NCBI GenBank assembly: GCA_002387725.1
Contig: DGKK01000025.1
Coordinates: 10,400-73,592 of the forward strand
Reading direction: 5' to 3'
DNA length: 63,193 bases
Origin: Nitrospirae bacterium UBA4572
GTDB taxonomy: Bacteria; Nitrospirota; Leptospirillia; Leptospirillales; Leptospirillaceae
Below, in pieces: positions 23,100 to 56,350 of the stretch (the stretch's first letter is position 1; each line of letters opens with the position of its first letter). The notes beneath the pieces were generated by a model that saw only the letters and a list, made by a program, of their open reading frames with translations, did no database searches and was not told the DNA's origin. The translations under genes and the position numbers were made by a program.

Positions 23100-23120
23100 T
23101 TTCGTTACTCCTTCCGTGAA

Positions 23121-23136: not shown

Positions 23137-23145
23137 TTTTGGAAA

Positions 23146-25586: not shown

Positions 25587-25587
25587 T

Positions 25588-26910: not shown

Positions 26911-26933
26911 GTTAGGAACTCTCGAAGGGAGCC

Positions 26934-28487: not shown

Positions 28488-28522
28488 CTACATGGCACTT
28501 TCTTTATTGTGTGTGAGGAAGG

Positions 28523-28723
28523 TCATGGAAAGTCGATGCCACCGGGATGAAAGGGGTGACAGCGCAGAATCCTGAAGATGGATTTAATCAAGGCTCGATG
28601 AAATGGATATTTGTTGAAGGACAGGCGGGCGTATTCAGAGCAGGAAGGATAAAAACGGCAGGATTGGGGGAGGAAAGGAGAGATATACCTCTGATAGAGA
28701 GAAATCAAACCCTGCATCGTCAT
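28523..28723 (-). CDS. yidD: Membrane protein insertion efficiency factor YidD
   Basis: Start set at ATG 28723 ([32 protein letters not shown]..., 66 aa). ATGA overlap with the rnpA stop. Confidence 0.85.
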
Positions 28724-29043
28724 GCCTTCAGTCGTGAAAGCGTTTTTCGCGCCTGAACCATCTGGTCGAGTAGCTGATCGAAGGACGTTGTCAGCGCGGG
28801 ATTCCGGCCCATGATGACATAATAACCCGGAGGGAAACCGTCGGTTAACCGATAGGCTTCCCTGAGGCGTCTCCGGACGCGGTTTCGGAAAACAGCCTTC
28901 CCGATCTTTTTTCCCACGAGTACGCTGAGACGATAGTCGCTGGAATTCTGACATAGAAGGACAAAGGACGAGGAGACAACCTTTATGCCGGGAGATTCGA
29001 TGATGCGCTGGATTTCACCACGGGTAAGCGAGACTGGCTTCAA
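28720..29043 (-). CDS. rnpA: RNase P protein component
   Basis: 107-aa basic ORF (..[20 protein letters not shown]..) between rpmH and yidD. Confidence 0.85.
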
Positions 29044-37010: not shown

Positions 37011-38063
37011 TCAGGGGTTGAATGTGAGCGTGTAGAGCGATGTTTCCGGGGTGAGGAAGACAAGGTCCAGCCGGTGAGGTCCATAGCTTTGTCCGGTGAC
37101 GATGGCATACATCCGGGAGCCGTTAACCCGGACGATGGTTCCGGACTTCGGATCGATCGTGGTGTCGGATCCGGCCTCATCTTTTGCAAGGGGGTGCCCA
37201 TCGACGGTGACAAGAACGATGCCTTCGGATTGGCCCTTCGGACGCCTCATCACGGCATTGACCCCCCGTCCCTGATAATAGACAGTGAGCACCGGAGGAT
37301 GATTGTCTTTTGAAATTCCCGAAAAAACATGATCCGGAGTTGATGACCATAACCCATTAAGAATTATTGAATTATTTATTTTTGTTTGGCCAGAATAGTA
37401 ATATTCTTTTTTATGAAAACCCGAGGCATTTCCAAGGTGTCCCCGATCTGTTCCGGCATAGAGCTCGGGGGTGAGGTCGGGGGAAAAACCGCCAGAATCC
37501 AAATTTCCCTGAGGCGGAGCGGGAAGATGAAGGGCGGAGACGATACTGTCTTCAAGCTCATCATATCCGCCCTCTCCGATGGAGTGGTAGAGAAGTGTAC
37601 CGTCGGGGCCATAGAGGTAGTCTGAGGGCCAGTAATGATTTTTGAAACGTCTCCAGAGCGTCTGATCCTTGTCGAGAACGACGGGAAAAATGATGTGGTA
37701 CTGGGCGATGGCCCTCTCGACTCTCTCCGGCCGTGCGGCAAAGTCGAATTCGGGAGAATGGATCCCGACAATGACGAGACCCTTGTCCTTGTATTTTCGA
37801 TAGATCTCATCAAGATGGGGAAATGTTCGAATGCAGTTGATGCAGGTGTAGTCCCAAAAATCATAGAGGACAACTTTTCCCTGAAGATGGGGAGGAGAAA
37901 CAGGTCCCTGTCCATTCACCCACCCCCCATTTCCCTCAAGGGAGATGGGAGAGCCGAAGGAACGGGCAGGAAAGCCCAAAAGAACAATAAGGGCGGAGAT
38001 AAGACAAAAGGAGGTGAGAAAAGAGAAAAGAGTTCGGATCGGGATAGTTCCGGAATCTTTCAT
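37011..38063 (-). CDS. Secreted thioredoxin-fold protein with a C-terminal beta-rich domain (DipZ C-terminal-like)
   Basis: Start at ATG 38063 (SD GGGAG). Has a signal/TM segment, a redoxin motif VVLYDFWDYTCINCIRTFPHL (CxxC) and a ~190-aa extra C-terminal domain. Confidence 0.75.
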   Translation of the reverse strand: MKDSGTIPIRTLFSFLTSFCLISALIVLLGFPARSFGSPISLEGNGGWVNGQGPVSPPHLQGKVVLYDFWDYTCINCIRTFPHLDEIYRKYKDKGLVIVGIHSPEFDFAARPERVERAIAQYHIIFPVVLDKDQTLWRRFKNHYWPSDYLYGPDGTLLYHSIGEGGYDELEDSIVSALHLPAPPQGNLDSGGFSPDLTPELYAGTDRGHLGNASGFHKKEYYYSGQTKINNSIILNGLWSSTPDHVFSGISKDNHPPVLTVYYQGRGVNAVMRRPKGQSEGIVLVTVDGHPLAKDEAGSDTTIDPKSGTIVRVNGSRMYAIVTGQSYGPHRLDLVFLTPETSLYTLTFNP

Positions 38064-38162
38064 CGGCAGATCTCCCGGAGGGAAAATGATAGGGGCAAGA
38101 AAAAGAAAAGGAAGGCCCGAAGGCCCTCCTTTTAATTGGATCAAAGGTTCAGAAATGAGAAG

Positions 38163-38447
38163 TCAGGGATGTTTCCCCGTCCAGGATTCGGGACGGAATC
38201 CCTCCTTGGAAAGCTCGAAGGTGTCTTTAAGGTCCGTGATCATGATCATCTTGATGGCGTGGTGTTTGGCAAGGTCATCACAGATTCCCACGCAGATCTC
38301 ACAGCCCTTGCACCGATCAACGGCAACGAAGGCCGTTTTGGCGGCGTTATCGTAGAGGATGGTGTTGGCCTCGGGGCAATACTGGGTGCAGAGGCGACAG
38401 GCAGTTTCACTGCAGATAGCTTGGTCGATATGCGCGACAAGATACAA
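38163..38447 (-). CDS. 2-oxoacid:ferredoxin oxidoreductase, small 2x[4Fe-4S] ferredoxin-like subunit
   Basis: 94-aa ORF with two four-Cys clusters (CSETACRLCTQYCP and CKGCEICVGIC). Last gene of the OFOR cluster. Confidence 0.85.
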   Translation of the reverse strand: MYLVAHIDQAICSETACRLCTQYCPEANTILYDNAAKTAFVAVDRCKGCEICVGICDDLAKHHAIKMIMITDLKDTFELSKEGFRPESWTGKHP

Positions 38448-38468
38448 GGGATTTCTCCTTTAGTTAGA

Positions 38469-39164
38469 TCAGACGGAGGCCTTTTGGCTCTTAGCGGCCC
38501 AGCCGTGATCCTGGGCATATTGGTAGGCGGCGGCAATAACGGCCATGTTGCTCTTCAGAAGCTGCTCTTTTTTGGCAAATTTCTTTTCGATCACATTGTC
38601 GAGAGCGGCCGTGCCTCCGGAGACGACAAATCCCTTTCCGAGAAAGCGTTCACGGACAGACTGTTCGAGGGATTCCATCGACGGGATGCCAAGAATCGAG
38701 GCGATGGCTCCCACCATGGCCATGTTTGTGGCGAGGTCGGTTCCGCCGACTTCACGGGCCATGGTTGTGGCCGGAAGGTAGTGGATCCGTGCCTGACGCT
38801 CCTCAAGTTCGCGAACCTCATCGGGCTGCAGGGGAATCGGGGTGTCGGAGTTGATGAGGACGACACCGTTCTGCTTGAGTCCGGAATAGAACGGCATCGT
38901 ATAGGATTTTCCGTGAGTGATCACCTGAGGATGGAAAATCATGATCACGTTGGGGTAGATGATTTCCCCAATTTCATAAATTCTGTCGATGGCAATGCGA
39001 ACGTAGGATTCAACCGGAGCCATGCGCTTCTCGGAGCCGAAAAAGGGAACAAGGGTGCTTTCCCCGCCATTGATCACCATCCCGTTGCTCAGGATGTGGG
39101 AGGCGGTGACGACTCCCTGGCCTCCGATACCGGCCATACGGATGTTGTAACGCTTGAGTTGCAT
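38469..39164 (-). CDS. 2-oxoacid:ferredoxin oxidoreductase, gamma subunit
   Basis: 231-aa ORF. N-terminus IRMAGIGGQGVVTASHIL is typical of the OFOR gamma domain. Confidence 0.9.
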   Translation of the reverse strand: MQLKRYNIRMAGIGGQGVVTASHILSNGMVINGGESTLVPFFGSEKRMAPVESYVRIAIDRIYEIGEIIYPNVIMIFHPQVITHGKSYTMPFYSGLKQNGVVLINSDTPIPLQPDEVRELEERQARIHYLPATTMAREVGGTDLATNMAMVGAIASILGIPSMESLEQSVRERFLGKGFVVSGGTAALDNVIEKKFAKKEQLLKSNMAVIAAAYQYAQDHGWAAKSQKASV

Positions 39165-39229
39165 GGTGCGATCTCCTTCAATTGGGGGAGGAGAGAACGA
39201 TTGCCGTTTCCCCTCCCGGGTCCTGACTC

Positions 39230-40093
39230 CTACTTCTTGGCTTTCTTGGAGGTATCGATGGATTCAAGGTAGGCCTTGGCTTCATCGGAGATGATTTCCA
39301 TGAAACCGTAACGCTTCGATTCGATCTCCCGGGCATCGTCAAGAACCTTCGGGGTCGGGATGGCGTATTCGATATTGCAGGAGGTGTAGGCCTGAATAAA
39401 GGTGGGACCGACTTCTCGGGCAATCATGACGGCTTTCCTAACCACGGAAGCCACCCGGGTCGGATTGGTGGGGGTCAGACGGGCAATGTAGGCAACGCCT
39501 GATGTCTGGGCCAGACCGATCATGTCCATCTTGTCGAAGAGCTTGCCCTTGGGGGCCATCTTGAGGAGGGCACCGCGCTCGGTCATGCCGCTCTCCTGAC
39601 CTCCGGTATTCCCATAGACTTCGTTGTCGAGCATGATGGTGGTAAAACGTTCCTTGCGGAACCAGGAGTGCATCACGGCGCTGAAACCGATGTCCGCCAG
39701 TCCGCCGTCACCTGCCATCACGACCACGTCCTTGGCCTGATCCTTGAACCGGACTTCAAGGCCGCGCTTGAGGCCGGAGGCCACCGCATTGGTGTCCCCG
39801 TAGTTTCCGTAGATGAAGGGAATCGAAGTCTGGGTCAATGCGAGTCGACCGCATCCGGCCGTTCCGATGAGAATGGTGTGCTCGGGGTTGGGGAGTCCCA
39901 CCATCGTGAGACGGATGAAAAGGGTCATGGCGCAACCGGCGCACATGGGATGCTCCTCGAGGACCTCCTTGAAGGAGCCCATTTCGGAGACCTTTTTCTG
40001 TTTCCCGTAGGGACCGCGCTCCACGAGGTCCACGTATTCCTTGGTCATGTACTTCTCCCAACCGGGAGTGATGGTCATATTCTTAAAGCTCAT
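39230..40093 (-). CDS. 2-oxoacid:ferredoxin oxidoreductase, beta (TPP-binding) subunit
   Basis: 287-aa ORF with Cys ligands (HPMCAGCA, GTAGCG) and TPP motif VVMAGDGGLADIGFS...NEVYGNTGGQ. Confidence 0.92.
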   Translation of the reverse strand: MSFKNMTITPGWEKYMTKEYVDLVERGPYGKQKKVSEMGSFKEVLEEHPMCAGCAMTLFIRLTMVGLPNPEHTILIGTAGCGRLALTQTSIPFIYGNYGDTNAVASGLKRGLEVRFKDQAKDVVVMAGDGGLADIGFSAVMHSWFRKERFTTIMLDNEVYGNTGGQESGMTERGALLKMAPKGKLFDKMDMIGLAQTSGVAYIARLTPTNPTRVASVVRKAVMIAREVGPTFIQAYTSCNIEYAIPTPKVLDDAREIESKRYGFMEIISDEAKAYLESIDTSKKAKK

Positions 40094-40177
40094 TGGTCAG
40101 CTCCATATTCTTGATAAGTCAAAGAAGTTTTCTTTTGACGTCGTGTTGTTCTGATGACCCTGAATGTCTTGACGTGG

Positions 40178-41422
40178 CTAAAAAACAAATTTCTTGTTCG
40201 GGAAGATCGTCTGAAGGATCATCTCCGTGGGCATGGACATACCGCCGTAGACCCGAGGTCCGGCAACGATCTCTGCCTTGGAGTGTCCGTACAGTGCGGT
40301 GACGATTTCACGATGAAGCCATCCCATGTAGTTAAACTCGGGGACGATGATTCTCTTCGCGTGCTTGCAGGCCTCGCGAAGTTCCGGCGTGGGGAAGGGG
40401 CGAATCGAACGGACCTTGATGAGTCCGATCTTGGTGTTGTGTTCCTCTTCCGCCTGACGGACAGCCTCCCGGGACTGGGAGACGGCACTCCCGGAAGCGA
40501 TCAGCATGATTTCTGCATCTGGGTTGACGACCTCGATCAGGCCTCCCATGTATTTGTTGATGTAGCGACGGGCTCTCTCGTTGGCAGCCCATACTTCCTG
40601 CTGCCAGGAGGCATGAACCTGATAGCTGATGAAGTTGCTCTTCTGGATCGGCGCATCGCGGGAAAGACGGGCCGGAGGATTTTCGTTGTCCATTGCCGGA
40701 ACGGCTTCGGCATAGGGATCTCTCGGAGGAAGCTTGATGTCCTTCGAGGGAATGTTGACATATCCGCGGGCATGGGTGACAAAGAATCCGTCCACCGCCA
40801 CCGCCACGGGGAGGGTGACCTCAGGTCGCTCGGAAATGATGAAGGCCTTCATGGTGTAGTCGAAGAAGTCCTGCTGATTCTCTCCGTGGAGGAGGATAAG
40901 ACCGGAATTGAGAAGATAGGCGAGCTCGACATTGTCGGGCTGGATGGCGAGAGGGGCATTGACCACCCGGCACATGATCAGGAGAACTGCGGGAATCCGT
41001 CCACCTGGCCAGGAGGCGATCACTTCCATGCCTCTCATGAGTCCGGGACCGGCGGTGGCGGTCATGGACCGGGCGCCTGCCCGGGAAGAGCCGGCAATGG
41101 CGGACATCACGCCGATTTCTTCTTCTCCACGGAAATATTCCTTGACATATCCTTCGGCCCAAAGGGAGCCCACCTGCTGCATGGTCTCGCTCTGGGGAGT
41201 GATCGGGTAGGAGATGGCGACGTCGACGTTGGAGCGGCGAATGGCCTCCTTGGCGGCTTCGGACCCTGTAATGAACGCTCTTTCCCGAGGGGCTTCGAAG
41301 AACATGTATTCCGGGGTAACGACCTTCTGTCGATCGCCCGCGGAGAGTTCGCTCTCGGGGGTTCCCTTGACTTCAGGGGCTTTGCCTGCCTGGACGTCTT
41401 TGACTCCTGCCGAATCGGACAT
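40178..41422 (-). CDS. 2-oxoacid:ferredoxin oxidoreductase, alpha subunit
   Basis: 414-aa ORF with the YPITP motif (VAISYPITPQSE) and an OFOR domain I/II pattern. Confidence 0.92.
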   Translation of the reverse strand: MSDSAGVKDVQAGKAPEVKGTPESELSAGDRQKVVTPEYMFFEAPRERAFITGSEAAKEAIRRSNVDVAISYPITPQSETMQQVGSLWAEGYVKEYFRGEEEIGVMSAIAGSSRAGARSMTATAGPGLMRGMEVIASWPGGRIPAVLLIMCRVVNAPLAIQPDNVELAYLLNSGLILLHGENQQDFFDYTMKAFIISERPEVTLPVAVAVDGFFVTHARGYVNIPSKDIKLPPRDPYAEAVPAMDNENPPARLSRDAPIQKSNFISYQVHASWQQEVWAANERARRYINKYMGGLIEVVNPDAEIMLIASGSAVSQSREAVRQAEEEHNTKIGLIKVRSIRPFPTPELREACKHAKRIIVPEFNYMGWLHREIVTALYGHSKAEIVAGPRVYGGMSMPTEMILQTIFPNKKFVF

Positions 41423-41748
41423 TCATGACTCCTTAATATGGAAGATGGTCAGTGAAGAGAGGGTGAAAACGCTAAAGCTTGATTGAATCGGGCCAAGGCT
41501 CCGAACCAGGGTCCAGGGGGACGCCAGAGTTGTCGTGGCGTGTCGTGAACCAAGGCATGCCGGGAATCCGTGTCTATTTCCTGGGCTAAGGAGATCGGCA
41601 TATGAAGAAAGCCATCAACCCGGGATCTGCCTGTCCAATTTGTCCCGGAGAGGATCCCGCATCTTCAATCAGCCTGCGACAACAATATTATCCAGCGTTC
41701 GAATACACTATCACCAGTTCTCAAATCAAGTCAAACCTGGGGAAGTCT

Positions 41749-41777
41749 CCTCTTGATCCCTTGAAGGGATCAAGAGG
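41749..41777 (-). terminator. Perfect 12-bp-stem hairpin (CCTCTTGATCCC-TTGAA-GGGATCAAGAGG), possible terminator or processing/operator site
   Basis: Seen directly, ~70 nt downstream of the 203-aa gene stop. There is no clean U-tract on the minus-strand transcript, so the terminator assignment is tentative. Confidence 0.35.
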
Positions 41778-41845
41778 CCGGATTCCTGCGAAAGTTCTTG
41801 TTTCGTTTCTTTTTTTCTCTCTCCTAGCAGTCAATCCAGGAAGAC

Positions 41846-42457
41846 TCATTCGGCATGTTCGTCGAGTCCTGCGGCGAGATCATGGCGAAACTCCTCTGGA
41901 ATGTGCAGGGCCTTTGTCTCGTCCCACTTCCAGTCCGGACGCTTTTCGGGGTATTTGACGAGATTCCGGGAATGGGCCACCCCTTCCGGTGTGGCTCCCC
42001 AGGGAGTGAAGGCGGAATCGGAGAGAAGGGCCGAGATCTCGCGGGTCAGACTTTGTAAAAGGTCGAGCTCCCGGACATCGAGATGAATGTGGCCCGTCGG
42101 GGCTAGGCCATGGTCATCAAGAAGAAGGATGGTCCCGCAGGAATCCCGGATGCTCTCGAGGTGCACAAGGATGGAATCCAGCCGGCCCTTGGGAATCCCG
42201 GAGAGAAGAGTGATTCCCGATGAGAAGACAAGGGTGTCCGCCGGCTTGAAGTCGGAAACGTGCGCCAGATCGATGGCGGGAATCGTCTCCTCGAAAAAAC
42301 GCATCAGGCGACGGCGCTCCGCATCGGTATCATTCCAACCCCAACGGGTCGACGATCCGATCATGAGCGTAGGGCGCTCCGAGGTCAGAATCAATCGGGC
42401 AAGGGATCGCACATCATGAGAAGCGGCGTGTGTGGGTGTCATTGTGGTCTCTCGCAT
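41846..42457 (-). CDS. 203-aa soluble protein, candidate fifth (ForD/PorD-like) subunit of a five-subunit OFOR
   Basis: ORF with no motif I can assign. Its size (~22 kDa) and position upstream of alpha-beta-gamma-ferredoxin match my recollection of the Hydrogenobacter forDABGE layout. The start may be ATG 42457 or 42442. Confidence 0.55.
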   Translation of the reverse strand: MRETTMTPTHAASHDVRSLARLILTSERPTLMIGSSTRWGWNDTDAERRRLMRFFEETIPAIDLAHVSDFKPADTLVFSSGITLLSGIPKGRLDSILVHLESIRDSCGTILLLDDHGLAPTGHIHLDVRELDLLQSLTREISALLSDSAFTPWGATPEGVAHSRNLVKYPEKRPDWKWDETKALHIPEEFRHDLAAGLDEHAE

Positions 42458-42589
42458 ATAGTGTGGTCGGTTCTGAACAAAAGGAAGAGCTTCCGTGACG
42501 GTGTGTCGGTCTGAAATCCCGCTCCTGGGATGTTTTGTCCGGTCTTTCTATGTTAAGGGTCCTTCGAGGACCAAATCAAGGAGCAGCCG

Positions 42590-43081
42590 TCAGGAGTGGT
42601 GAGGAGGAGACCCAAAGGCCCGGAGCACTCCCTCGACAATGGCCTCCGGAGGAGGGGGACAGCCGTGAACTGTGACATCGGGTGGAAGAATTGAGGAAAG
42701 TCCATCGTGGGTCGCGTAGCTTCCCCGGAACACCCCTCCGGAGATGGCGCAGTCCCCAACGGCCAGGACCCGTTTCGGAGCGGGCATCGCCTGGTGGGTC
42801 GTTTCAAGGGCTTCCTTCATATGGCAGCTCACCGGTCCGGTAACCAGAAGAATGTCGGCGTGGCGCGGAGAGGCAACAAATGAGAATCCAAGGCTGGAGA
42901 GGGAGGTGACGGGATTTTCCAGGGCCCAGAGTTCGAGCTCGCATCCATTGCAGGAGCCGGCATCCACATGGCGGATGGAGGCGCTATGGAGAAACGGAGG
43001 TCGTCCTGTCTCTTCCTGAGTCCTGGTGGGAGATTCGGTCAGTGTGCCTGTCTTCAAAATCTTCCAGAGAAGTTTCCACAT
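42590..43081 (-). CDS. NuoB/HycG/HyfI-like small subunit (one [4Fe-4S] site retained)
   Basis: 163-aa ORF with DAGSCNGCELE, VGDCAISGG and VHGCPPPP, the four-Cys pattern of the proximal/N2-type cluster. Confidence 0.9.
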   Translation of the reverse strand: MWKLLWKILKTGTLTESPTRTQEETGRPPFLHSASIRHVDAGSCNGCELELWALENPVTSLSSLGFSFVASPRHADILLVTGPVSCHMKEALETTHQAMPAPKRVLAVGDCAISGGVFRGSYATHDGLSSILPPDVTVHGCPPPPEAIVEGVLRAFGSPPHHS

Positions 43082-43090
43082 GGGAGTCTC

Positions 43091-44647
43091 CTAAAGGTCC
43101 GAGGCACTGTAGCTCGGATTGAATGACTTGTTGATCAGAGGGAAGTCGGCCACGAGATTCCCGGGGACAGAGGCTTCAAGCGCATGCCACAGAAGGGGCG
43201 AACCATCCGCGATATGGGCATCTGCGAGAATCTTGCCCGGGAGGATCCGGACCCATCCCAGAACCTCTCCGCGGAACCCTTCCACAATGCCGGCTCCTTC
43301 CCGGGGGGCCGGAGGGTCCGGGATCGTCGCGCAGATGTCGGGTCCGGGAAAGCTTGTCAGGAGGGCATGAGTCAGTCGCAGGGATTCAAATATTTCGAAA
43401 AAACGGATCCGGACCCGAGAGGCCACGTCTCCGATATGGTCGAGCGCCAGGGCGGGAGCAAAGCGGTGCACAGGGTCTTCCCGATGGTCGACGCGAAGAT
43501 CCCATCCCTGACCACTGGCGCGGCCAGCCACCCCTCCGATCCCCAGTCTGCCGGCAACCTCCGGAGACAGAATGCCCGTATTCTGGAATCGATCCTGAAG
43601 CCCGCCGTGATCGGCGTAAATCCTTTCAAGAAGGGAGACCTCGGCCTGAAGTCGTTCATTCTCCAGGAGAAGGGTTTCGATCATGGCTCCGGAGAGGCCT
43701 GTTGAGACACCTCCGGGAACAACCGAATCAAAGAGGAGTCGGTGGCCGAAAAGGGACAGGTTGATGCGATGCATGGCTTCGCGGAGGGGATGAAAGAGGG
43801 AGAGAGCGACAGCGAGCCCCGCATCATTTCCGAGAGCCCCCAGGTCGGCCAGGTGATTCGCGATTCTCTCCCTCTCCAGCAGAATGGCCCGGACAAACCG
43901 GACCCCCTCCGAGATCTCGATATCCAGGGCCTCTTCGACGGCCTTTGAAAAGGCCAGCGAGGTGGCCACTGCCGAATCTCCCGAAATCCGTGAGGCCAAA
44001 CGGGCGGCTTCCGGGAGATTCCGTCCCCGAAAAAGGCGCGCGATTCCCTTGTGGGTATAGCCCATCCGGGTCTCCAGACGGAGGACTTTTTCTCCGACAA
44101 CGGAAAAGCGGAAATGACCCGGCTCGATGATGCCGGCGTGAACGGGCCCGACGGGAATCTCATGGACGCCGTCCCCGCGGACCCTTACGAAAGGATAGTC
44201 CATACCTTGAGCCAGGCGTGTCAGGGGAGAAGGGGTGTGTGAGAGGGGGGGATGGCTCCAGAGGCCGTGATCAATCCAGGGACGAAGGTCCGCCAACCCG
44301 TCCGGGATGAGCCCAAAGAGATCGTGGATCGTACGCTCAAAGCGGGCAGCAGGAGGGAAGATTGAGGAGAGGGAGGGAAAAGAGACGGCGTCCTTTGGCA
44401 GGGAAAGGGACAGAAGAACAAGACCTTCCCTGAGCAGAATCGCTGCCCGGATGGCCGGGAGGGACTCGGACCAGAGCGTCAGAAGCCTGGCTCCATTGCT
44501 GGACAGAAGGCGCGCCTGTGCCAGGTAACGGTCGGGTGACTCGGTGACGAGAAAGGTATGGGGAATGCCGCCATGAAGACGATCAAAGCCGGTCTCGGGA
44601 GAAAAAAAAGGGGATGAGTCACCCTCCATGGGGACCTCCAAGGACAA
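43091..44647 (-). CDS. Fused NuoC-NuoD / HycE-HyfG-like subunit lacking all Ni-Fe ligand cysteines
   Basis: 518-aa ORF with a NuoC-like FERTIHDLFGL and a HycE-like core (VGPVHAGIIEPGHFRF). The ligand motifs read RISGDSAVAT and NPSYSASDL. There is a single Cys in the whole protein. Confidence 0.9.
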   Translation of the reverse strand: MSLEVPMEGDSSPFFSPETGFDRLHGGIPHTFLVTESPDRYLAQARLLSSNGARLLTLWSESLPAIRAAILLREGLVLLSLSLPKDAVSFPSLSSIFPPAARFERTIHDLFGLIPDGLADLRPWIDHGLWSHPPLSHTPSPLTRLAQGMDYPFVRVRGDGVHEIPVGPVHAGIIEPGHFRFSVVGEKVLRLETRMGYTHKGIARLFRGRNLPEAARLASRISGDSAVATSLAFSKAVEEALDIEISEGVRFVRAILLERERIANHLADLGALGNDAGLAVALSLFHPLREAMHRINLSLFGHRLLFDSVVPGGVSTGLSGAMIETLLLENERLQAEVSLLERIYADHGGLQDRFQNTGILSPEVAGRLGIGGVAGRASGQGWDLRVDHREDPVHRFAPALALDHIGDVASRVRIRFFEIFESLRLTHALLTSFPGPDICATIPDPPAPREGAGIVEGFRGEVLGWVRILPGKILADAHIADGSPLLWHALEASVPGNLVADFPLINKSFNPSYSASDL

Positions 44648-46100
44648 GAAGGGCCTTCTGATAAACCGAGTAGAGAGTGGCCGGAAAGACCGTTCCCAGG
44701 ATCAGCGCCAGTCCGAGATGGATCCAGATAGGGAAAAACGTGAGCTTGGGCAGTGGGGGGAGGGGTTTCGTCGTCATGGAGGGGCCCCCTTCACTGATCT
44801 CGAGAATGCGGAAGATCAGTACTCCGAAGGTGACGAAGAGGGCGAGAAGGAGAAAGGGAACGGCAAAGGGAATTCTTTTGACGGCCTCGGTGATGATCAG
44901 AAGCTCGCTGGCAAAGAGGGCGAAGGGAGGGAGGCCCGTGATGGCGAATCCTCCCGCCAGGAGTGCCCGGGCGAGTCCGGGCGTCCTGAGGGCCACCTCG
45001 CGGATGGACGGAATCTTCTGTGACCCGGAGGTCTGGACAATGTGTCCCACGGCAAAGAAGATCGCCGATTTGACGAGGCTGTGAGTGGTCATATGGAGTA
45101 GTCCCGCAAAGGTGGCCAGCGGGCCACCGATGCCGAAGGCCAGAGTGGCGAGCCCCATGTGCTCGATCGAGGAGTAGGCGAAAAGGCGTTTGATGTCCTG
45201 CCTCTTCCACATCGAGATCGAGGCGAGGAGGACGGAGGCCAGTCCGAATCCCATCAGGAGATTCGAGGGCATGGAGCTGTGGATCGCTCCGTCTGCCAGG
45301 GACTTGACTCTGAGGATGGCATAGAGGGCGACGTTCAGGAGGAGGCCCGAAAGGACCGCCGAGATGGGTGTGGGACCTTCCGCATGGGCATCCGGAAGCC
45401 AGTTGTGAAGGGGGACAAGCCCGACCTTGGTTCCGTATCCCACCATAAAAAAGACGAAGGCCAGCGACATCACGGTGGGTTCGAGCTGCGACTTGACGGT
45501 CTCGAGGTGAGTGAGAAGAAGCGCCGTTCCTCCGGGTCCCAGGGTTTTTTCGGAGGCGAAATAAAGGAGGATCGTTCCGAAAAGAGCCTGGGCAATTCCG
45601 ACGCCGCAAAGGATGAAGTATTTCCAGGAGGCCTTGATGGCGGCGGGGGTTCGGGTCCACCCTACGAGAAGGACCGTCGCCAGGGTCGCTCCTTCGAGCG
45701 CCACCCACAAAAGACCCAGGTTGTTGCTTGCCAGAACGACAATCATCGTCAGGACGAAAATCTGGTAAAGCGCGAGATAGAGGCGGGTCCTTTCCGGTGT
45801 CAGTCTGCCATGAGAAGCCTCGATCGTCATGTACCGGAGAGAGAAAAAGGAGGTCGTCGCCGCGACTCCTCCGGTGATGACAAGAAAAAGGGAGGAGAAG
45901 GTGTCGGCGAAGAGATTCTCGTCGAGGGCGACCAGGGGGCCATGAAGCGAGACCTCTTCACCGAGGATGAGGGTGAGGAAAAAGGTCAGGAGCGAGAAGG
46001 CGATATTCAGGAGCGGGGCGATTTTCCTGTGGCCCCAGAGGCCAAGAACGATGGCTCCGGTGATCGGTGAAAGTATCATGAGGACGAGAATCACAGTCAC
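44619..46100 (-). CDS. Antiporter-like membrane subunit (HyfF / NuoM-N family)
   Basis: 493-aa polytopic ORF with the signature LHNWLPDAHAEGPTPISAVLSGLLLNVALYAILR. Confidence 0.88.
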   Translation of the reverse strand: MTVILVLMILSPITGAIVLGLWGHRKIAPLLNIAFSLLTFFLTLILGEEVSLHGPLVALDENLFADTFSSLFLVITGGVAATTSFFSLRYMTIEASHGRLTPERTRLYLALYQIFVLTMIVVLASNNLGLLWVALEGATLATVLLVGWTRTPAAIKASWKYFILCGVGIAQALFGTILLYFASEKTLGPGGTALLLTHLETVKSQLEPTVMSLAFVFFMVGYGTKVGLVPLHNWLPDAHAEGPTPISAVLSGLLLNVALYAILRVKSLADGAIHSSMPSNLLMGFGLASVLLASISMWKRQDIKRLFAYSSIEHMGLATLAFGIGGPLATFAGLLHMTTHSLVKSAIFFAVGHIVQTSGSQKIPSIREVALRTPGLARALLAGGFAITGLPPFALFASELLIITEAVKRIPFAVPFLLLALFVTFGVLIFRILEISEGGPSMTTKPLPPLPKLTFFPIWIHLGLALILGTVFPATLYSVYQKALLVLGGPHGG

Positions 46101-46771
46101 TCCGTCGGGGTATTGTCCATGTGTTTCAGGTCAAAGCTTTCGAATGTTTCCCGGATCTGGAAGAAGAAGATCCCGAAGACGAAGGTGCCCACAAGAACAT
46201 CGAAGGCCACGCCAAGCTCCACGACCATGGGCATCCCATAGGTGGCATTGATCGCGGAGAAAAAGAGGGCGTTTTCCATTCCCAGAAATCCCAACACCTG
46301 CGTGACGGCCTTTCGTCGGGTGATCATCATGAGGAAGGAGAGGAGCAGGGCGGCCAGACCTACTCCGATCAACCCGCGGGAGACCGTATTGGCCATCTCG
46401 GAGATGGGGGCGGCCAGGGCAAAGGAAAAAACCACGACAAAGAGTCCGACCACCATGGTGGTCGGAACGTTAAGAAGAACCTCCACCTCTCCCCGGATGT
46501 GCAGTCGCTCGAGAAGGCGAAAGAGAAGGATCGGCAGCAGAAGAACCTTGAAGGCCAGGGTGAAGAGGGCGGAGAAGAAAAGATGAGGCTCTCCTGCGGC
46601 AAGGGCCACAGAGAGCGTGCTGAGTGTCAGGAGGATTCCCTGCAGGGCAAAGATTCTGACAAGGGAGGCCATTCGCCTCATGGAGAGCATGGCGAACGAG
46701 GAAAGGAGAAGGGCGCTTCCGAGGAAGCCGACAAGCGGGCTCGTCGGGGGAGAGACAAAAGAGGCAGCCAT
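46097..46771 (-). CDS. HyfE-like small membrane subunit
   Basis: Start at ATG 46771 (MAASFVSPP..., 224 aa). Multi-TM with a GFLGMENALFF block resembling HyfE. Confidence 0.78.
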   Translation of the reverse strand: MAASFVSPPTSPLVGFLGSALLLSSFAMLSMRRMASLVRIFALQGILLTLSTLSVALAAGEPHLFFSALFTLAFKVLLLPILLFRLLERLHIRGEVEVLLNVPTTMVVGLFVVVFSFALAAPISEMANTVSRGLIGVGLAALLLSFLMMITRRKAVTQVLGFLGMENALFFSAINATYGMPMVVELGVAFDVLVGTFVFGIFFFQIRETFESFDLKHMDNTPTE

Positions 46772-46772
46772 G

Positions 46773-47741
46773 TTATCCCTCAAGGACAAAGTGAAGGAGA
46801 AAACCCAGCGTTGACAGAAGATAGGCCAATGCCGTGAATTCCGGGACCCTGAAGATCCTGAGCTTCGCAAAGAGTGATTCGATCAGGGCCAGAAGAGCTC
46901 CGAGAATGAAAAGTTTTCCCAAAAGAAGGATCCCCCCTTCGAGAAGGCCCGAAAGAGCGAAAGTCCGCGGAATCCCCGCGGGGGCAAAAAAGTCGATTCC
47001 CAGAAGGAGGTAGAGAAGGAGCTTTTGCATCGATCCCCATTCCATCAGGGCCAGAAGGGGGCCGGAATATTCGAGAAGCATCGCCTCGTGGATCATCGTC
47101 AGCTCCAGGTGCGTCGATGGGTTGTCGATGGGGAGCCGGGCATTTTCTCCGAGGAAGACAAGGATGAAGGCCATGGCGGCAATCAGGAGGCTGGGATGAA
47201 AGGGGAGAGGGCCCTTCGAGAAAGATGTCAGGATCGAAGGGATCGACGTGGATCCCGACCAGAGCGAGACGGTGAAGAGGATCATGAGGGTGGCAGGCTC
47301 GGTCAGAAAGGCCACCATCATCTCCCTGCGCCCTCCCATGTCTCCGAAGGGGGTTCCGAGATCCATGGCGGCCATTGCCATGGAAAACCGGGCCAAAGAG
47401 AAGAGGCCGACAAGCGTGACGGCATCGGCGACGGGAGCCAGAGGAGGGGATGTTCCCAAAAAGGGGACAAGAAGGGCCGCCACCGCCATGATGGAGAAAA
47501 AGAGAGGCGGGACAGCGAGGAAAAGAGGCGAATGCCCCTCCGGAAGAATCATCTCCTTGCGAAAGAGGCGCACAAGATTCCTCCAGGGTTGCAAAATCCC
47601 AGCAGGGGATCGGTTCTGGAGAATGGCCCGGACGGTACCGATCCACCCATATAAAAGGGGGGCCAGGAAAAGGACAAAGGCCATCTGAAGAAGGGAGATC
47701 GCGATGGCTAAGGAGCCGTGAAAGGAAGAAGCTAGTGCCAT
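46773..47741 (-). CDS. NuoH/HycD/HyfC-like membrane subunit
   Basis: 322-aa polytopic ORF with a NuoH-family pattern (..RLPIDNPSTHLELTMIHEAMLLEYSG..). Confidence 0.88.
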   Translation of the reverse strand: MALASSFHGSLAIAISLLQMAFVLFLAPLLYGWIGTVRAILQNRSPAGILQPWRNLVRLFRKEMILPEGHSPLFLAVPPLFFSIMAVAALLVPFLGTSPPLAPVADAVTLVGLFSLARFSMAMAAMDLGTPFGDMGGRREMMVAFLTEPATLMILFTVSLWSGSTSIPSILTSFSKGPLPFHPSLLIAAMAFILVFLGENARLPIDNPSTHLELTMIHEAMLLEYSGPLLALMEWGSMQKLLLYLLLGIDFFAPAGIPRTFALSGLLEGGILLLGKLFILGALLALIESLFAKLRIFRVPEFTALAYLLSTLGFLLHFVLEG

Positions 47742-49783
47742 CGGAGCACCGACAGAAGAAGGATGAGGGTGGTGAAGCTGTAGATCAGGTAGATTGAAAT
47801 TCGCCCCGAGCGAACACGTTCCGCCCCTTCCGCAATGGCGACAAAAAGACGGAACAGCGGGCGATAGAGGAGCGGCCAGTGAGGATCCTCGACGGAGAGG
47901 AGAAAGACAGGATCGGGATCATCCGGAGAGGGGAGATGTCTCTTCATGGAGAAAAAGACTGGAAAGAAATGGCGAATCGGCTGGGCAAAGGATTCGGCTG
48001 TGGCCTGGGAGCGTCTGTAAGAATCGCGATAGCCGCATCCCCAGGGGATTGAGAGGCGACGCTTTTTTCCTTCTGTCCCCAGAACAAGCCAGAGGACGGG
48101 CAGTGTCAGGATGACGAGGAGAAGGAGAAGAAAAAGAGGGGATGTGGAGGGGCCGGCCGGGGGAAGGGGGAGAAGCCAGGCCCATCCGTAGGCTCCGGAG
48201 GGAGAGGGCAGGGTCGTGGAGGTCAGGGGAGAGACGGCCTTGAGGATTTCACCGAGGACGAGGCTGGGAAAGAGCCCCAGGAAGAGAGAGCCCATGGCCA
48301 GGCCTCCCATGCCCAATCGTTCAAAGAGGGAACATTCGTGAGCCGCCCTGGCCCCGTCGGAACGGGGCTGGCCAAGATATCCCACCCCGAAGAACTTGAG
48401 AAATCCCATGGCGGCGAGGGCCGATGCCAACACAAGTATGGCCGCGCCAAAAAGAACGGCACTGCGTTGAATGGTTCCGAGGAGGTCGCGGGCCTGCAGG
48501 GTGGACTGGAGAAGAAGCCATTCCGAGACGAAGCCGTTCGTCGGAGGAATCCCTGAAATGGAAAGGACCGCGATGAGGACCAAGGCTCCGGAGACAGGCA
48601 TTTTTTTGAAGAGCCCTCCCATCCGGTTGAGATTCGTCTCCCCCGTCGCATGAATCATGGTTCCCGCCCCAAGGAAGAGAAGTGCCTTGAAGAAGGCATG
48701 GTTGAGGGCGTGGTAGAGAGCGGCACAGAGTGCCAGGGTTCCTGCCAGGGGGTGTCCTGTCTTCAGATAGAGAATGCCGAGCCCTGTTCCCAAGAGAATC
48801 AGGCCGATGTTTTCAATGGAAGAGTAGGCGAGAAGGGTCTTGGTGTCAGACTGGAGGATGGCGTGAAGAATCCCGAACAGGGCCATGAAGGCTCCGGTGA
48901 CGAGCAGGAGAATGCCAAATGAGGGGGCGAGCTGGGGAAGTCCCACGAGGTCGAAGAGGGCGCGGATCAGTCCGTAGATGGCCGCCTTGAGCATGACCCC
49001 GCTCAACAGGGCCGAGGCCGGAGCCGGGGCGGCCGGATGCGCCAGCGGGAGCCAGACGTGAAGAGGGACAACGCCGGCCTTGGCTCCGAAGCCCAATAGA
49101 AAAAGGAGGGAAACCAGAAGGGCTTCTCCTGAGGACAGATGGTTCATCTTCAGGGCCTCGAAAGAGAAGGAGGCCATCGTCAGCGAGCCGGAGGGAAGCT
49201 CCCGGGTGGCCAGGAGCGCAAAGGCGGTCACGATCAGCATGCTTCCTCCATGCGCCAGGAGGAGCGTGAGATAGCTGGCGCGACGAACCCCTTCGGTGTT
49301 TTCTCCGGAAAGGATCAGGAAAAACGAGGCGACGGCCATGATCTCCCAGAAAAGCATGAAGGAGTAGACATCAGCGGCGAGGAAGACTCCCCCCGTAAAA
49401 AAGAGAAAAACCGTGGTCTTGGCCAGAAACTGGGCCTTCTTTTCAGGGGCCTCATTCTTTGTGTATCCGGCCGAATAGAGCAGAACTCCCGCCGAGGCTC
49501 CTCCCAGAAGAAGAAGAAAAAAGCCCGAGAGAGGATCGAGGCGAAGATGAAATGAGAGTCCGGGAATTCCTCCGGGTAGGATCAGTCGGGTGTCCGAGGT
49601 TGTGACAAGGGGGAGAAGCCCCGAAAGGGCAATGGCCAGACTCTCCAGGGAGAGGAGGGTAAAGAAAAAGGAGGCCAGAGAGGGGCGGCGCCCGACAACT
49701 CCGGCACCGGCCAGTCCTGTGAAAAGAAGGGTGAGAAGTGCGGCGAGAGTCAGGAAAATCGGAGAGGGAAAGAGCGTCATCAC
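47732..49783 (-). CDS. NuoL/HycC/HyfB-like antiporter-type membrane subunit
   Basis: 683-aa polytopic ORF. LHVWLPLAHPAAPAPASALLSGVMLKAAIYGLIR, plus a C-terminal PWGCGY block as in HycC/HyfB. Confidence 0.9.
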   Translation of the reverse strand: MMTLFPSPIFLTLAALLTLLFTGLAGAGVVGRRPSLASFFFTLLSLESLAIALSGLLPLVTTSDTRLILPGGIPGLSFHLRLDPLSGFFLLLLGGASAGVLLYSAGYTKNEAPEKKAQFLAKTTVFLFFTGGVFLAADVYSFMLFWEIMAVASFFLILSGENTEGVRRASYLTLLLAHGGSMLIVTAFALLATRELPSGSLTMASFSFEALKMNHLSSGEALLVSLLFLLGFGAKAGVVPLHVWLPLAHPAAPAPASALLSGVMLKAAIYGLIRALFDLVGLPQLAPSFGILLLVTGAFMALFGILHAILQSDTKTLLAYSSIENIGLILLGTGLGILYLKTGHPLAGTLALCAALYHALNHAFFKALLFLGAGTMIHATGETNLNRMGGLFKKMPVSGALVLIAVLSISGIPPTNGFVSEWLLLQSTLQARDLLGTIQRSAVLFGAAILVLASALAAMGFLKFFGVGYLGQPRSDGARAAHECSLFERLGMGGLAMGSLFLGLFPSLVLGEILKAVSPLTSTTLPSPSGAYGWAWLLPLPPAGPSTSPLFLLLLLVILTLPVLWLVLGTEGKKRRLSIPWGCGYRDSYRRSQATAESFAQPIRHFFPVFFSMKRHLPSPDDPDPVFLLSVEDPHWPLLYRPLFRLFVAIAEGAERVRSGRISIYLIYSFTTLILLLSVLRWH

Positions 49784-49979
49784 GGATGCATCATCTTTTC
49801 GGTTGGAAGGAGATGCCCTGCTTTCCTTAGAGGGGGAGAGGAAGGAGTATGTTCAAAATAGTAGATCATCTCTGTTCATTATACTATATTTTTTCGGGGG
49901 AGAGTAAAGTCGGGAATTCATTGCCCTCCGTCTTGAAATTGGAGCTCAAGGGCCCTAGGATGAGAGAAGGAGGGGGAAA

Positions 49980-50300
49980 ATGCGAGAAGATCCGCGGGAC
50001 ATACAACAAAACGAGGTGGCTCGGGAGATCGAGCGGAGCCAGGGCCCCATTCCCTGGTGGATGGTCATCCTGATCGTCATCGTCTATGCGACGGCGATCA
50101 TTCTTTCTCTTCCCATCTTGGGGAACCGGACCGGACAAAACATCAATACCTTCTTCTCCCCGGACCACAAACGGGGGACCTTCGACTTCGGAACCGTGGG
50201 AGGCGGGGCCTATCTTGCAGGGGGATTTTTTGTCATCTACTACGTGTTCATGATCCGGCCCCGCAGGATGCAAAAGAAGAAAAGCCAGAAGCTTCCCTGA
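49980..50300 (+). CDS. Small two-TM membrane protein (unknown function)
   Basis: 106-aa ORF with a strong SD (GGAGGGGG), two hydrophobic helices and a basic tail. Its stop is 2 nt before the M50 protease ATG. Confidence 0.55.
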   Translation: MREDPRDIQQNEVAREIERSQGPIPWWMVILIVIVYATAIILSLPILGNRTGQNINTFFSPDHKRGTFDFGTVGGGAYLAGGFFVIYYVFMIRPRRMQKKKSQKLP

Positions 50301-50302
50301 CC

Positions 50303-51169
50303 ATGCCCCTGGAGCCCCGTCCCCGTCGGGAGAAATTTCTGGCGGGAATCCTGTTTTCCCTGACCGCCCTCTCGACCACCTTTGCCGGTGCCCTGCTGGC
50401 CGGAGTCGACCCGCTGGCAACCCCCGGAGGATTCTTCACGGGGCTGCCCTATTCCCTGACGCTTCTCCTGATCCTTTCTGCTCATGAGGCCGGGCACTTT
50501 TTGATGGCCCGACATTATGGCGTCAATTCCCCCTTGCCCTGGTTCATCCCCGCTCCCACGTTGGTGGGAACCTTCGGAGCCCTGATCCGGCTTCCCCGTC
50601 TCCCGGGATCGCGCGTGGCGCTCTTTGACATTGCCCTGGCCGGACCGGTTGCGGGTCTCGTTCCGTCGATTCTGGCCCTGATAGTCGGGATCAGGATATC
50701 TTCCGTCATGGGAGGCTCTCCGGGTGACGGGAAGGGTCTGATTTTGGGGGAGTCACTTCTTTTTAAGGGAATGGAAGCCCTCTTTGGAGGAGTAAACGGC
50801 CCTGGTCAGACCCTCCTGCTCTCGCCAGTGGGCTTTGCCGGATGGGTGGGCCTTCTGGTGACGGCCCTCAACCTGCTTCCGGTGGGACAGCTTGACGGAG
50901 GCCACATCTCATACGCCCTCTTCGGGCGCAAGGCCCGATTTGTCTCCTGGGGGCTGGTTCTTGCGATGGGGATCCTCGGTTTTTTGGGGTGGAGGGGCTG
51001 GTGGATCTTCGGAGGGCTCGTTCTCCTGTTCGGTCCGGTGCATCCTGACTTGGGTGAAGCCCACGGAGAAAGGGAGGAATTGCCCTTGTCCCGGAAGGTT
51101 TGGGGGATGGTGGCGGCCCTTATTCTGGTTCTGGTCTTTGTCCCTGACCCTCTTCGTCCTGCCGGATAG
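50303..51169 (+). CDS. Site-2 protease family (M50) zinc metalloprotease, no PDZ
   Basis: Start at ATG 50303 (288 aa). HEAGHFLMARHYG (HExxH) and NLLPVGQLDGGH motifs. Confidence 0.85.
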   Translation: MPLEPRPRREKFLAGILFSLTALSTTFAGALLAGVDPLATPGGFFTGLPYSLTLLLILSAHEAGHFLMARHYGVNSPLPWFIPAPTLVGTFGALIRLPRLPGSRVALFDIALAGPVAGLVPSILALIVGIRISSVMGGSPGDGKGLILGESLLFKGMEALFGGVNGPGQTLLLSPVGFAGWVGLLVTALNLLPVGQLDGGHISYALFGRKARFVSWGLVLAMGILGFLGWRGWWIFGGLVLLFGPVHPDLGEAHGEREELPLSRKVWGMVAALILVLVFVPDPLRPAG

Positions 51170-56047: not shown

Positions 56048-56350
56048 TCAGCTTTTTCGGGCCAGAGAGGGGAAGGAGAGGACCAGCGGGGCCGAGCCAG
56101 CTGGGGTTTGACACGCAAGACGGTAGTCGGTCTCGAGGAGCATGGCCTTGGATAGGAAGTCTTCTACAGAATTGCGCGGGGGGAGAGAGTCGAGTCCTTC
56201 GACGACCTTGACAAGGCAGGTGGCACAGGCCGATTCACCGGCACAGACAAAGCCGAACGCCACCCCCTGATCCATGGCCCCCTGAAGGAGAAGCCGGCCT
56301 TCGGGAATCTCGATTTCCCTGTCTAGCTCGACAATCCTTACGATGGGCAA
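56048..56350 (-). CDS. [2Fe-2S] ferredoxin
   Basis: 100-aa ORF with a TTG start preceded by AAGGAGG. Cys pattern C-x5-C-x2-C...C (CAGESACATC....LAC). Confidence 0.85.
   Translation of the reverse strand: MPIVRIVELDREIEIPEGRLLLQGAMDQGVAFGFVCAGESACATCLVKVVEGLDSLPPRNSVEDFLSKAMLLETDYRLACQTPAGSAPLVLSFPSLARKS

Follow-up and report, generated by a model that had tools for sequence, protein, structure and literature searches.

Gene content and organisation of the ehr operon

The DNA analysed here, referred to as the window, is a stretch of 63,193 nucleotides (nt) from Nitrospirae bacterium UBA4572, and the subject of this analysis is a set of six minus-strand open reading frames (ORFs) that fill its positions 49783-42590. 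Gene families were assigned using Pfam and NCBIfam profiles, and there is very little doubt that the region represents a complete ehrABCDLS (=hyqBCEFGI) operon of Leptospirillum ferrodiazotrophum, belonging to the Ehr/Hyq family, which constitutes a six-subunit 'core' of the complex I/group-4-hydrogenase superfamily. The six genes are as follows:

47732-49783, minus strand: ehrA (hyqB/hyfB-like), NuoL-type antiporter-like subunit of 682-683 amino acids (aa) with a C-terminal extension
46773-47741, minus strand: ehrB (hyqC), NuoH-like subunit, 322 aa; NADHdh PF00146, 3.3e-30
46097-46771, minus strand: ehrC (hyqE), HyfE-like small membrane subunit (NuoJ/K-like), 224 aa
44619-46100, minus strand: ehrD (hyqF), NuoM/N-type (HyfF-like) antiporter-like subunit, 491-493 aa
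43091-44647, minus strand: ehrL (hyqG), fused NuoC+NuoD/hydrogenase-large-subunit-like protein, 512-518 aa; PF00329 (Complex1_30kDa) and PF00346 (Complex1_49kDa)
42590-43081, minus strand: ehrS (hyqI), NuoB-like small subunit, 163 aa; Oxidored_q6 PF01058, 1.8e-28

Both antiporter-like proteins match Proton_antipo_M (PF00361; 1.2e-48 for EhrA and 3.2e-51 for EhrD), and at the level of NCBIfam they correspond to 'hydrogenase 4 subunit B' (EhrA, 2e-198) and 'hydrogenase 4 subunit F' (EhrD, 3.5e-189, 629.8 bits against a curated cut-off of 543), respectively. EhrC is recognised by NF008556, 'hydrogenase 4 membrane subunit' (HyfE), at 1.8e-20, and is also called as a 224-aa protein on public contigs. 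These assignments confirm the minus-strand order that an earlier note on this DNA had proposed, namely NuoL/HyfB, NuoH/HyfC, HyfE, NuoM-N/HyfF, NuoCD and NuoB. As neighbouring ehr genes overlap or lie 9 nt apart, they form one translationally coupled operon. EhrS is identical to GenBank EES53321.1, a 'putative hydrogenase-3 subunit (HycG)' of L. ferrodiazotrophum, and the operon genes have been in GenBank since 2009 under the name of 'putative hydrogenase-3 subunits'. This organism belongs to Leptospirillum group III and lives in acid-mine biofilms; that it fixes nitrogen is indicated by its name and by Tyson 2005, as cited in a secondary source.

Conserved and replaced residues in the Ehr subunits

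All canonical channel residues are present in the membrane subunits, as anticipated by the earlier note, which had described an intact ion-translocating arm. The WLP.AH..AP...S..L.G motif, which had been reported for the antiporter-like subunits, was found in both of them (VWLPLAHPAAPAPASALLSG in EhrA and NWLPDAHAEGPTPISAVLSG in EhrD), except that EhrD reads GP instead of AP. The Glu of transmembrane helix (TM) 5, the Lys residues of TM7 and TM8, the His/Lys residues of TM11 and the Glu of TM12 are at least 93% conserved in both proteins; individually, E147, K235, K266, H358, H362, K366 and E421 of EhrA are each conserved to at least 93% (62 species), and E136, K225, H336, H340, K344 and E399 of EhrD are likewise conserved (75 species). 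The conserved acidic residues of EhrB include E140, E148, E199, E213, E219, E224 and E234, while in EhrC residues E97, E166 and E185 are conserved.

The closest solved relatives of EhrS are MbhJ (6cfw_J, 1.2e-30) and HycG (7z0s_G), and its residues C44, C47, C111 and C141 align to the proximal-cluster cysteines of these two proteins. Among 77 species C44 and C47 are invariant, while C111 and C141 are Cys wherever the column is occupied; the four Fe-S cysteines attributed to the NuoB-like subunit are therefore indeed retained. As shown by these alignments, EhrS possesses the predicted ligands for one N2-type [4Fe-4S] cluster.

For EhrL the closest solved relative is HycE of Escherichia coli (7z0s_E, 4.3e-45), and no solved structure is closer than HycE or MbhJ to the respective Ehr protein. 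HycE 'RVCGICGFAHS' aligns with EhrL 'RISGDSAVATS' and HycE 'DPCYSCTD' with EhrL 'NPSYSASD', such that all four Ni-Fe cysteines are replaced (Ser/Ser/Ser/Ala), in keeping with the remodelled large-subunit pocket of the earlier note. Where group-4 [NiFe]-hydrogenases carry motifs L1 (RxCGxCxxxH) and L2 (DPCxxCxxH/R), EhrL reads RISGDSAVATS and NPSYSASDL, and the protein contains one cysteine in total, the non-conserved C439. EhrL nevertheless preserves the fold of the hydrogenase type, and the hydrogenase-type EPGHFRF loop is retained together with its Glu. In alignments with 49-kDa/NuoCD proteins, the position of the complex-I quinone Tyr ('LDY') is occupied by Gly223, which is invariant in a 13-sequence alignment, and that of the His ('THG') by Ile174. 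Since EhrL keeps the EPGHFRF loop but has neither the quinone Tyr nor the His, its pocket is, judged from the sequence, a de-metallated hydrogenase pocket rather than the quinone site of complex I. In EhrL, some 60 polar residues are at least 93% conserved, the replaced pocket motifs among them. Alignment positions 273, 505 and 511 are Cys in an alphaproteobacterial Hyq subclade and in a few Nitrospirota, and match Cys258, Cys491 and Cys497 of Azorhizobium caulinodans HyqG; the corresponding residues in Leptospirillum are Gly, Ile and Pro, and therefore no Cys-based metal site is general to Ehr/Hyq.

These residues bear directly on the possibility that the complex is a Hyq-type 'endo-hydrogenase', i.e. 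an H2:quinone oxidoreductase in which H2 would be handled at the large subunit and no protein electron-input module would be needed. Such an activity would fit with the retained EPGHFRF loop and Glu, with the nitrogen-fixing lifestyle of L. ferrodiazotrophum, which consequently makes H2 from nitrogenase, and with the altered H2 recycling/evolution and slower diazotrophic growth caused by hyq deletion in Azorhizobium (PMC2650096, PMC3357923). However, EhrL is devoid of all four Ni-Fe ligands, the three cysteines that Sprecher et al. suggested as potential substitute ligands are confined to the alphaproteobacterial subclade, and neither hyp nor hycI genes occur in the window; moreover, the H2 phenotypes of Hyq were obtained in vivo and not with isolated enzyme, and its authors themselves rate the Ni-Fe site 'uncertain, if not unlikely'. 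H2:quinone oxidoreduction is thus regarded as decidedly unlikely for the operon in the window.

Selection and strain variation

A strain variant, L003 (a contig of ERZ27237486), differs from the window by approximately 6.6% in ehrA-C, and the ratio of non-synonymous to synonymous substitution rates (dN/dS) in this comparison is 0.14 for ehrA, 0.08 for ehrB and 0.04 for ehrC. These low ratios, together with the conserved cluster and channel residues, indicate that the operon is under purifying selection, and by these signatures the Ehr complex is functional. The view that the operon is a decaying hydrogenase relic, functionless now, could account for the disappearance of the catalytic cysteines from EhrL; however, all six frames are intact and translationally coupled, the replaced EhrL motifs are highly conserved across phyla, and the dN/dS values already contradict decay, which leaves this view with hardly any credibility.

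The divergence of L003 is unevenly distributed: ehrA, ehrB and ehrC are 93.2-93.5% identical to the window at the DNA level (dS 0.19-0.27), while ehrD, ehrL and ehrS, along with the 2-oxoacid:ferredoxin oxidoreductase (OFOR) genes that lie downstream, are 99.5-100% identical. Compared with the window, L003 is mosaic through recombination, and the breakpoint falls within the operon, at approximately 46100 (the ehrC/ehrD boundary).

Electron-input and maturation genes

The genes of the 63-kb window were assessed from precomputed Pfam annotations of public contigs identical to it, supplemented by a separate scan of its left end. None of the called genes of the window encodes NuoI/HycF, HycB/HyfA, HyfD, FdhF, NuoEFG, hyp or hycI functions. 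Additionally, a six-frame scan of the 63 kb detected a single CxxCxxCxxxC motif, located in a 94-aa OFOR subunit (38447-38163) that represents the sole dicluster ferredoxin-domain gene in the window and is not of the NuoI type. The two approaches agree with the earlier note in that a NuoI/HycF/HyfH/EchF-type subunit, HyfA, HyfD, formate dehydrogenase H, NuoEFG and hyp/hycI are all absent; the note had, however, overlooked the OFOR with its 2x[4Fe-4S] subunit. Mis-assembly was considered as a source of the missing NuoI and was rejected, since independent metagenome contigs from different samples carry the 12-kb region with 100% identity.

The window can be compared with the gene sets that characterise the larger families. 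The NuoI-type subunit (HycF/MbhN/EchF) of formate hydrogenlyase (FHL), membrane-bound hydrogenase (MBH), Ech and MBS is absent from it, as are linked hyp/hycI genes within the 63 kb, the latter being supportive of, although not strictly defining for, group 4 [NiFe]-hydrogenases. Complex I has a core of 11 or more subunits, NuoA, I, J and K among them, whereas six genes only are present here. An Mrp-type antiporter consists of MrpA-G, with MrpE/F/G and no NuoB/NuoD cap, whereas the operon holds NuoH-, NuoCD- and NuoB-like genes and just two antiporter-like subunits plus the HyfE-like protein.

The remainder of the window is of a housekeeping nature and includes a murA/aroA-type EPSP synthase gene, prmC, prfA, rho, the rpmH-rnpA-yidC-trmE-gidAB-parAB origin cluster, cobalamin genes, an archaeal-type PEP carboxylase gene and lpxC. 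The cluster rpmH-rnpA-yidC-trmE-gidA-gidB-parA-parB (~21500-29000, minus strand) is typical of a replication origin and the GC skew flips sign near 22 kb, placing a likely replication origin some 20 kb from the ehr operon. Among unrelated neighbours at ~56048-56350 on the minus strand, ~6 kb upstream of the operon, lies a gene for a 100-aa [2Fe-2S] ferredoxin (Pfam Fer2).

Conservation of the six-gene unit across genomes

EhrL has more than 8000 database relatives, and the best 120 homologues all lack the Ni-Fe cysteines and all carry R[IV]SGDS[TA]V and FPLINKSFN[LP]SYSG[HQ]DL. When each GTDB species was represented by a single genome, a scan yielded at least 598 confirmed loci, the best 80 of which were examined together with up to 10 kb of flanking sequence. 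Every sufficiently long locus among these 80 displays the order A-B-C-D-L-S, and the six-gene unit is therefore conserved as such. The examined carriers comprise Nitrospirota, Burkholderiales, Gallionella, Thiobacillus, Acidithiobacillus, Rhodanobacter and Acidobacteriaceae as well as Rhodopseudomonas, Bradyrhizobium, Mesorhizobium and Azospirillum, and the spread of Ehr/Hyq extends over Nitrospirota, Beta-, Gamma- and Alphaproteobacteria, Acidobacteriota and Firmicutes. In three of the loci, from Methylibium (L009), Aquabacterium (L029) and a member of the Nitrospirota (L069), a second, tandem ehr cluster lies directly upstream (...D-L-S then A-B-C-D-L-S); the ehr module is duplicated in several lineages.

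No ORF with a ferredoxin domain was found inside or beside the ehr cluster in any of the 80 loci, and ferredoxin motifs in their flanks are scattered and mostly off-frame; a two-motif ferredoxin-like ORF within 10 kb is present in one locus alone (L082). Clustering of the flanking ORFs identified no family that recurs in more than 11 of approximately 75 species loci, and none of the families is a redox partner. A NuoI-like gene adjacent to the operon in relatives, which could have pointed to a loss in this genome, was thus looked for in 80 loci without success, and the absence of NuoI is therefore a property of the family and not a loss or an assembly error here. This bears on a conventional wiring in which the input subunit is encoded elsewhere, be it a NuoI/HycF-like protein, the NuoI of a canonical nuo operon, or an unlinked dehydrogenase such as formate dehydrogenase (FDH). 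FDH and Ehr have been proposed to form a complex in Margulisbacteria and Saganbacteria, and the Ehr subunits of Geobacter peak on formate, both of which would accord with an unlinked partner. Against it, no input subunit is linked to the operon in about 75 species of three phyla, the ferredoxin-like ORF of L082 is a solitary case, and no FDH-like family is among the recurrent flank families. Furthermore, obligate subunits of the complex I/group-4-hydrogenase superfamily are normally co-encoded. Wiring through a subunit encoded elsewhere is accordingly judged very unlikely.

The most recurrent family in the flanks is a small XRE/HTH_3 regulator (hyqR-like, ~108-116 aa), which immediately precedes ehrA, in the same orientation, in two Leptospirillum-like loci (L091 and L092) and in nine alphaproteobacterial loci (e.g. 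4452-4775 in L083). Upstream of ehrA in the window, where alphaproteobacteria carry this regulator, there is a divergent 106-aa membrane-like ORF (49980-50300, plus strand).

Acidophilic or acid-tolerant organisms are common among the carriers (Leptospirillum, Sulfobacillus, Acidithiobacillus, Acidobacteriaceae, Rhodanobacter and Thiomonas). This distribution would suit a redox-independent ion transporter, i.e. a Mrp-like cation/proton antiporter or pH-homeostasis device in which the NuoB/NuoCD cap and the cluster play a structural or regulatory role, as would the lack of a conserved electron-input partner near the operon and the induction at pH 5 of the Methylocystis 'ehfA-F' genes, which bear an 'AARVS' motif. 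Conversely, conservation of all four cysteines of the cluster extends over 77 species, the ~60 polar residues of EhrL that are at least 93% conserved exceed what a mere lid should need, and the acid response of Methylocystis is accompanied by dehydrogenases and oxidases. Mrp antiporters, for their part, function without a NuoB/NuoCD-type cap. On balance, a purely ion-transporting role is deemed unlikely.

The downstream OFOR and protein 'h'

Directly downstream of ehrS, and on the same strand, the window carries a five-subunit-type OFOR. The features of this region are:

41846-42442, minus strand: protein 'h', 198 aa, between ehrS and OFOR-alpha; weak PF02552 match
41749-41777, minus strand: 13-bp perfect hairpin, rich in G+C and with no U-tract, lying in the 424 nt that separate 'h' from OFOR-alpha; -26.6 kcal/mol, z = -4.0
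40178-41422, minus strand: OFOR alpha, 414 aa; POR_N, Transketolase_C and PFOR_II
39230-40093, minus strand: OFOR beta (thiamine pyrophosphate-binding), 287 aa; PF02775 TPP_enzyme_C
38469-39164, minus strand: OFOR gamma, 231 aa; PF01558 POR, 5.2e-35
38163-38447, minus strand: OFOR ferredoxin-like 2x[4Fe-4S] subunit, 94 aa; Fer4_21 2.1e-5 and Fer4_10 3.8e-5
38106-38133, minus strand: intrinsic-terminator-like hairpin with a T-run at the end of the ehr-to-OFOR gene string; 12-bp stem with 6 GC pairs and a T-rich tail

The alpha, beta, gamma and ferredoxin-like dicluster subunits of an OFOR are all present. The alpha subunit is identical to EES53319.1, annotated as 'pyruvate:ferredoxin oxidoreductase alpha subunit' of L. 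ferrodiazotrophum, and the 94-aa subunit contains two Cys motifs, CSETACRLCTQYCP and CKGCEICVGIC. Of the hairpins on this strand, the one at 38133-38106 alone is convincing as an intrinsic terminator, none preceding it from ehr through OFOR. The hairpin at 41749-41777, after which promoter-like hexamers are located (41734-41687), might terminate transcription, mark a processing site or confer stability; a scan of both strands of 37900-50600 against Rfam returned no match at E values up to 0.1.

Protein 'h' matches PF02552 weakly (E 0.0018, 18.5 bits, below the cut-off of 21). This family (carbon monoxide dehydrogenase beta/acetyl-CoA synthase epsilon-like) provides the extra subunit of the five-subunit OFORs of Aquificaceae and Leptospirillum, which are O2-tolerant and serve the reverse tricarboxylic acid (TCA) cycle (PMC10052474, PMC2607301). 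The protein is present only together with OFOR genes, two other loci (L007, 62% identity, and L090, 56%) having both, and it is probably a PF02552-type 'delta' subunit of the five-subunit-type OFOR. That it might be a seventh Ehr subunit was considered and rejected, since it co-varies with the OFOR genes and not with ehr, and in view of its weak similarity to PF02552. Its family consists of 9 clusters among 5.8 billion proteins. An AlphaFold2 model built from a 10-sequence alignment has an alpha/beta fold with a predicted local distance difference test (pLDDT) score of 78.6, as compared to 37 for the single-sequence model; in the PDB, Foldseek found nothing for this protein at E below 0.001, the matches being weak ones of Rossmann-like and thiamine diphosphate-enzyme middle-domain type, and a profile search against PDB sequences returned spurious repeats only. 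The C-terminal tail (RPDWKWDETKAxHIPEEFRHDLAAGLDEHAE) hardly varies within the family and is poorly modelled, and its sequence looks like a docking peptide.

A proposed mechanism for Ehr

It is proposed that Ehr acts as a reversible redox-coupled proton or cation translocator in which electrons would pass directly between the single EhrS cluster and a low-potential Fe-S protein from outside the complex, in either direction. Redox-coupled ion translocation is suggested because the lone cluster is retained and the channel residues are fully conserved. In addition, with no NuoI layer in place the cluster would be reachable only by direct docking on the small subunit, presumably on the surface that is covered by NuoI/HycF in complex I, MBH and FHL. 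The argument of the earlier note that such an assembly needs a different way of wiring electrons to the NuoB-like cluster is supported, the conventional input genes being absent from the window. Candidate partners are soluble ferredoxin and, on dehydrogenases like the adjacent OFOR, the ferredoxin-like subunit, while the second substrate would most plausibly be a membrane quinone, bound in a non-canonical manner in the remodelled polar pocket at the L/S/B interface. In an aerobic host that oxidises Fe(II), runs the reverse TCA cycle and fixes N2, the useful direction would be the reduction of ferredoxin driven by the proton-motive force. We consider an ion-translocating oxidoreductase that is reversible, has a single cluster and docks a ferredoxin-type protein to be nearly, but not quite, an even prospect, and the identity of Ehr and its mechanism, when taken jointly, to be evenly poised.

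In favour of a connection with ferredoxin, CO2 fixation via OFORs and diazotrophy both need low-potential reductant. Leptospirillum fixes CO2 through the reverse TCA cycle using ferredoxin-dependent OFORs (PMC2607301), and the hyq genes of Azorhizobium are NifA-dependent, their deletion slowing diazotrophic growth (PMC2650096). In the window, the OFOR follows the operon in the same orientation and no terminator intervenes ahead of 38133, and this linkage is kept in L007 and L090.

A number of points weigh against this mechanism. The electron partner of Ehr is reached by inference and not by direct identification, and quinone as a substrate is an assumption, because the complex-I quinone ligands are not conserved in the sequence (Gly223 and Ile174, as described above). 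The OFOR linkage is absent from all proteobacterial and acidobacterial loci, and neither 'h' nor OFOR is present in L092 or in L091, the downstream chromosomal neighbours of which are the same as those in the window; the linkage is therefore a lineage-specific clue to a ferredoxin connection and not a family rule. Published data also point in other directions: Ehr subunits of Geobacter are most abundant on formate, the correlates in Methylocystis are acid stress and formate dehydrogenases (bioRxiv 10.1101/2025.08.29.672306), and the Ludwig laboratory assigns H2 turnover to Hyq. Finally, sequence taken by itself leaves room for a redox-inert role of Ehr.

A more far-reaching proposal is that, in the L. 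ferrodiazotrophum lineage, Ehr and the O2-tolerant OFOR form one machine, with Ehr in general being a quinol:ferredoxin reductase driven by the proton-motive force. The 2x[4Fe-4S] subunit of the OFOR would in this case replace NuoI on EhrS, perhaps bridged by protein 'h', the C-terminal tail of which is invariant, and the proton-motive force would drive electrons from the quinol pool straight into reductive carboxylation. This proposal is put forward as a long shot.

Irrespective of which partner is involved, to our knowledge Ehr/Hyq complexes have no biochemically established function or structure, and we know of no smaller complex I relatives that still bear a redox cluster. They are routinely mis-annotated as subunits of hydrogenase-3/-4 or NADH dehydrogenase. 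The source and sink of the lone Ehr cluster would inform complex I evolution, and Ehr may explain the supply of low-potential reductant in aerobic chemolithoautotrophs; if it is a quinol:ferredoxin reductase driven by the proton-motive force, it would explain reduced ferredoxin in aerobic reverse-TCA autotrophs and diazotrophs that live on donors of high potential, for example Fe(II) or nitrite. The question of the partner of the lone cluster is real but old, and no new question is opened here. The window adds one member to the family and one lineage-specific clue, the OFOR neighbour, and it constrains function through the cysteine-free pocket, the Hyq-specific cysteines that are not family-wide, and the absence of canonical quinone ligands.

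Comparison with known systems

The six-gene arrangement is not novel, as it is the published Ehr/Hyq architecture. Ehr complexes were described as relatives of group-4 hydrogenases whose large subunits lack the Ni-Fe motifs, with their function stated as unknown (Coppi 2005; Marreiros et al. 2013), and they are also known from Sulfobacillus, comammox Nitrospira and Margulisbacteria. They share with the window the NuoL-like, NuoH-like, HyfE-like, second antiporter-like, large and small subunits, as well as a large subunit without RxCGxCxxxH and DPCxxCxxH/R. The Ehr of Sulfobacillus, from the same acid-mine habitat, was reported as 'six syntenic genes ... lack the binding site motifs', whereas that of Geobacter sulfurreducens (GSU0739-0745) differs in having seven loci, with a second EhrA (EhrA-D, L, S). 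The Leptospirillum lineage is in turn set apart from the other ~75 species loci by its same-strand neighbour, the five-subunit-type OFOR.

Hyq of A. caulinodans (hyqRBCEFGI; Ng 2009, Sprecher 2012), the subject of genetic studies, possesses six structural genes in identical order and has been referred to as 'a core (6 subunit) version of (14 subunit)' complex I, with no counterpart of NuoA, E, F, G, I, K or N in the published table. As in the window, the four Cys residues of HyqI are kept and HyqG lacks both CxxC motifs. The alphaproteobacterial loci combine the upstream helix-turn-helix regulator with the three clade cysteines (505/511 spacing), which places Hyq in the same family, and the large subunits of Hyq and Leptospirillum are about 43-45% identical. 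In contrast to Hyq, the Leptospirillum operon has no same-strand hyqR-type regulator and none of the three candidate-ligand cysteines, and the H2 activity claimed for Hyq is hard to reconcile with its cysteine-free pocket.

HydDB group 4f, 'Ehf' (ehfA-F, uncharacterised), resembles Ehr in its six-gene organisation, membrane arm and phylogenetic neighbourhood, the Ehr of Nitrospira having been described as 'phylogenetically close to the group 4f'. It differs in being a Cys-containing sister, as membership of a [NiFe] class needs the CxxC motifs that are absent in the window. In Methylocystis sumavensis, 'group 4f' ehfA-F are up-regulated 16- to 20-fold (log2FC +4.2 to +4.5) at pH 5 (bioRxiv 10.1101/2025.08.29.672306). 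The 'AARVS' motif that the same study quotes for this 'group 4f [NiFe]-hydrogenase' is the cysteine-less motif of the Ehr family, and by this motif the acid-induced ehfA-F probably represent an Ehr complex rather than a hydrogenase.

FHL and MBH possess a Ni-Fe site and a NuoI-type subunit (HycF/MbhN), FHL additionally containing HycB and FdhF. The window has no Ni-Fe site, NuoI-type subunit or hyp maturation genes and differs from both in these respects, while E. coli FHL (Hyd-3, 7Z0S) and Pyrococcus furiosus MBH (6CFW) provide the closest solved large and small subunits and share the EPGHFR loop, and the NuoC domain of EhrL resembles the fused one in HycE. Complex I (NDH-1) has NuoA, E, F, G and I, which the window lacks, and its NuoJ/NuoK are represented here by the HyfE-like protein alone; shared with it are the homologues of NuoB, C, D, H, L and M/N, the site of the N2-type cluster and the antiporter residues.

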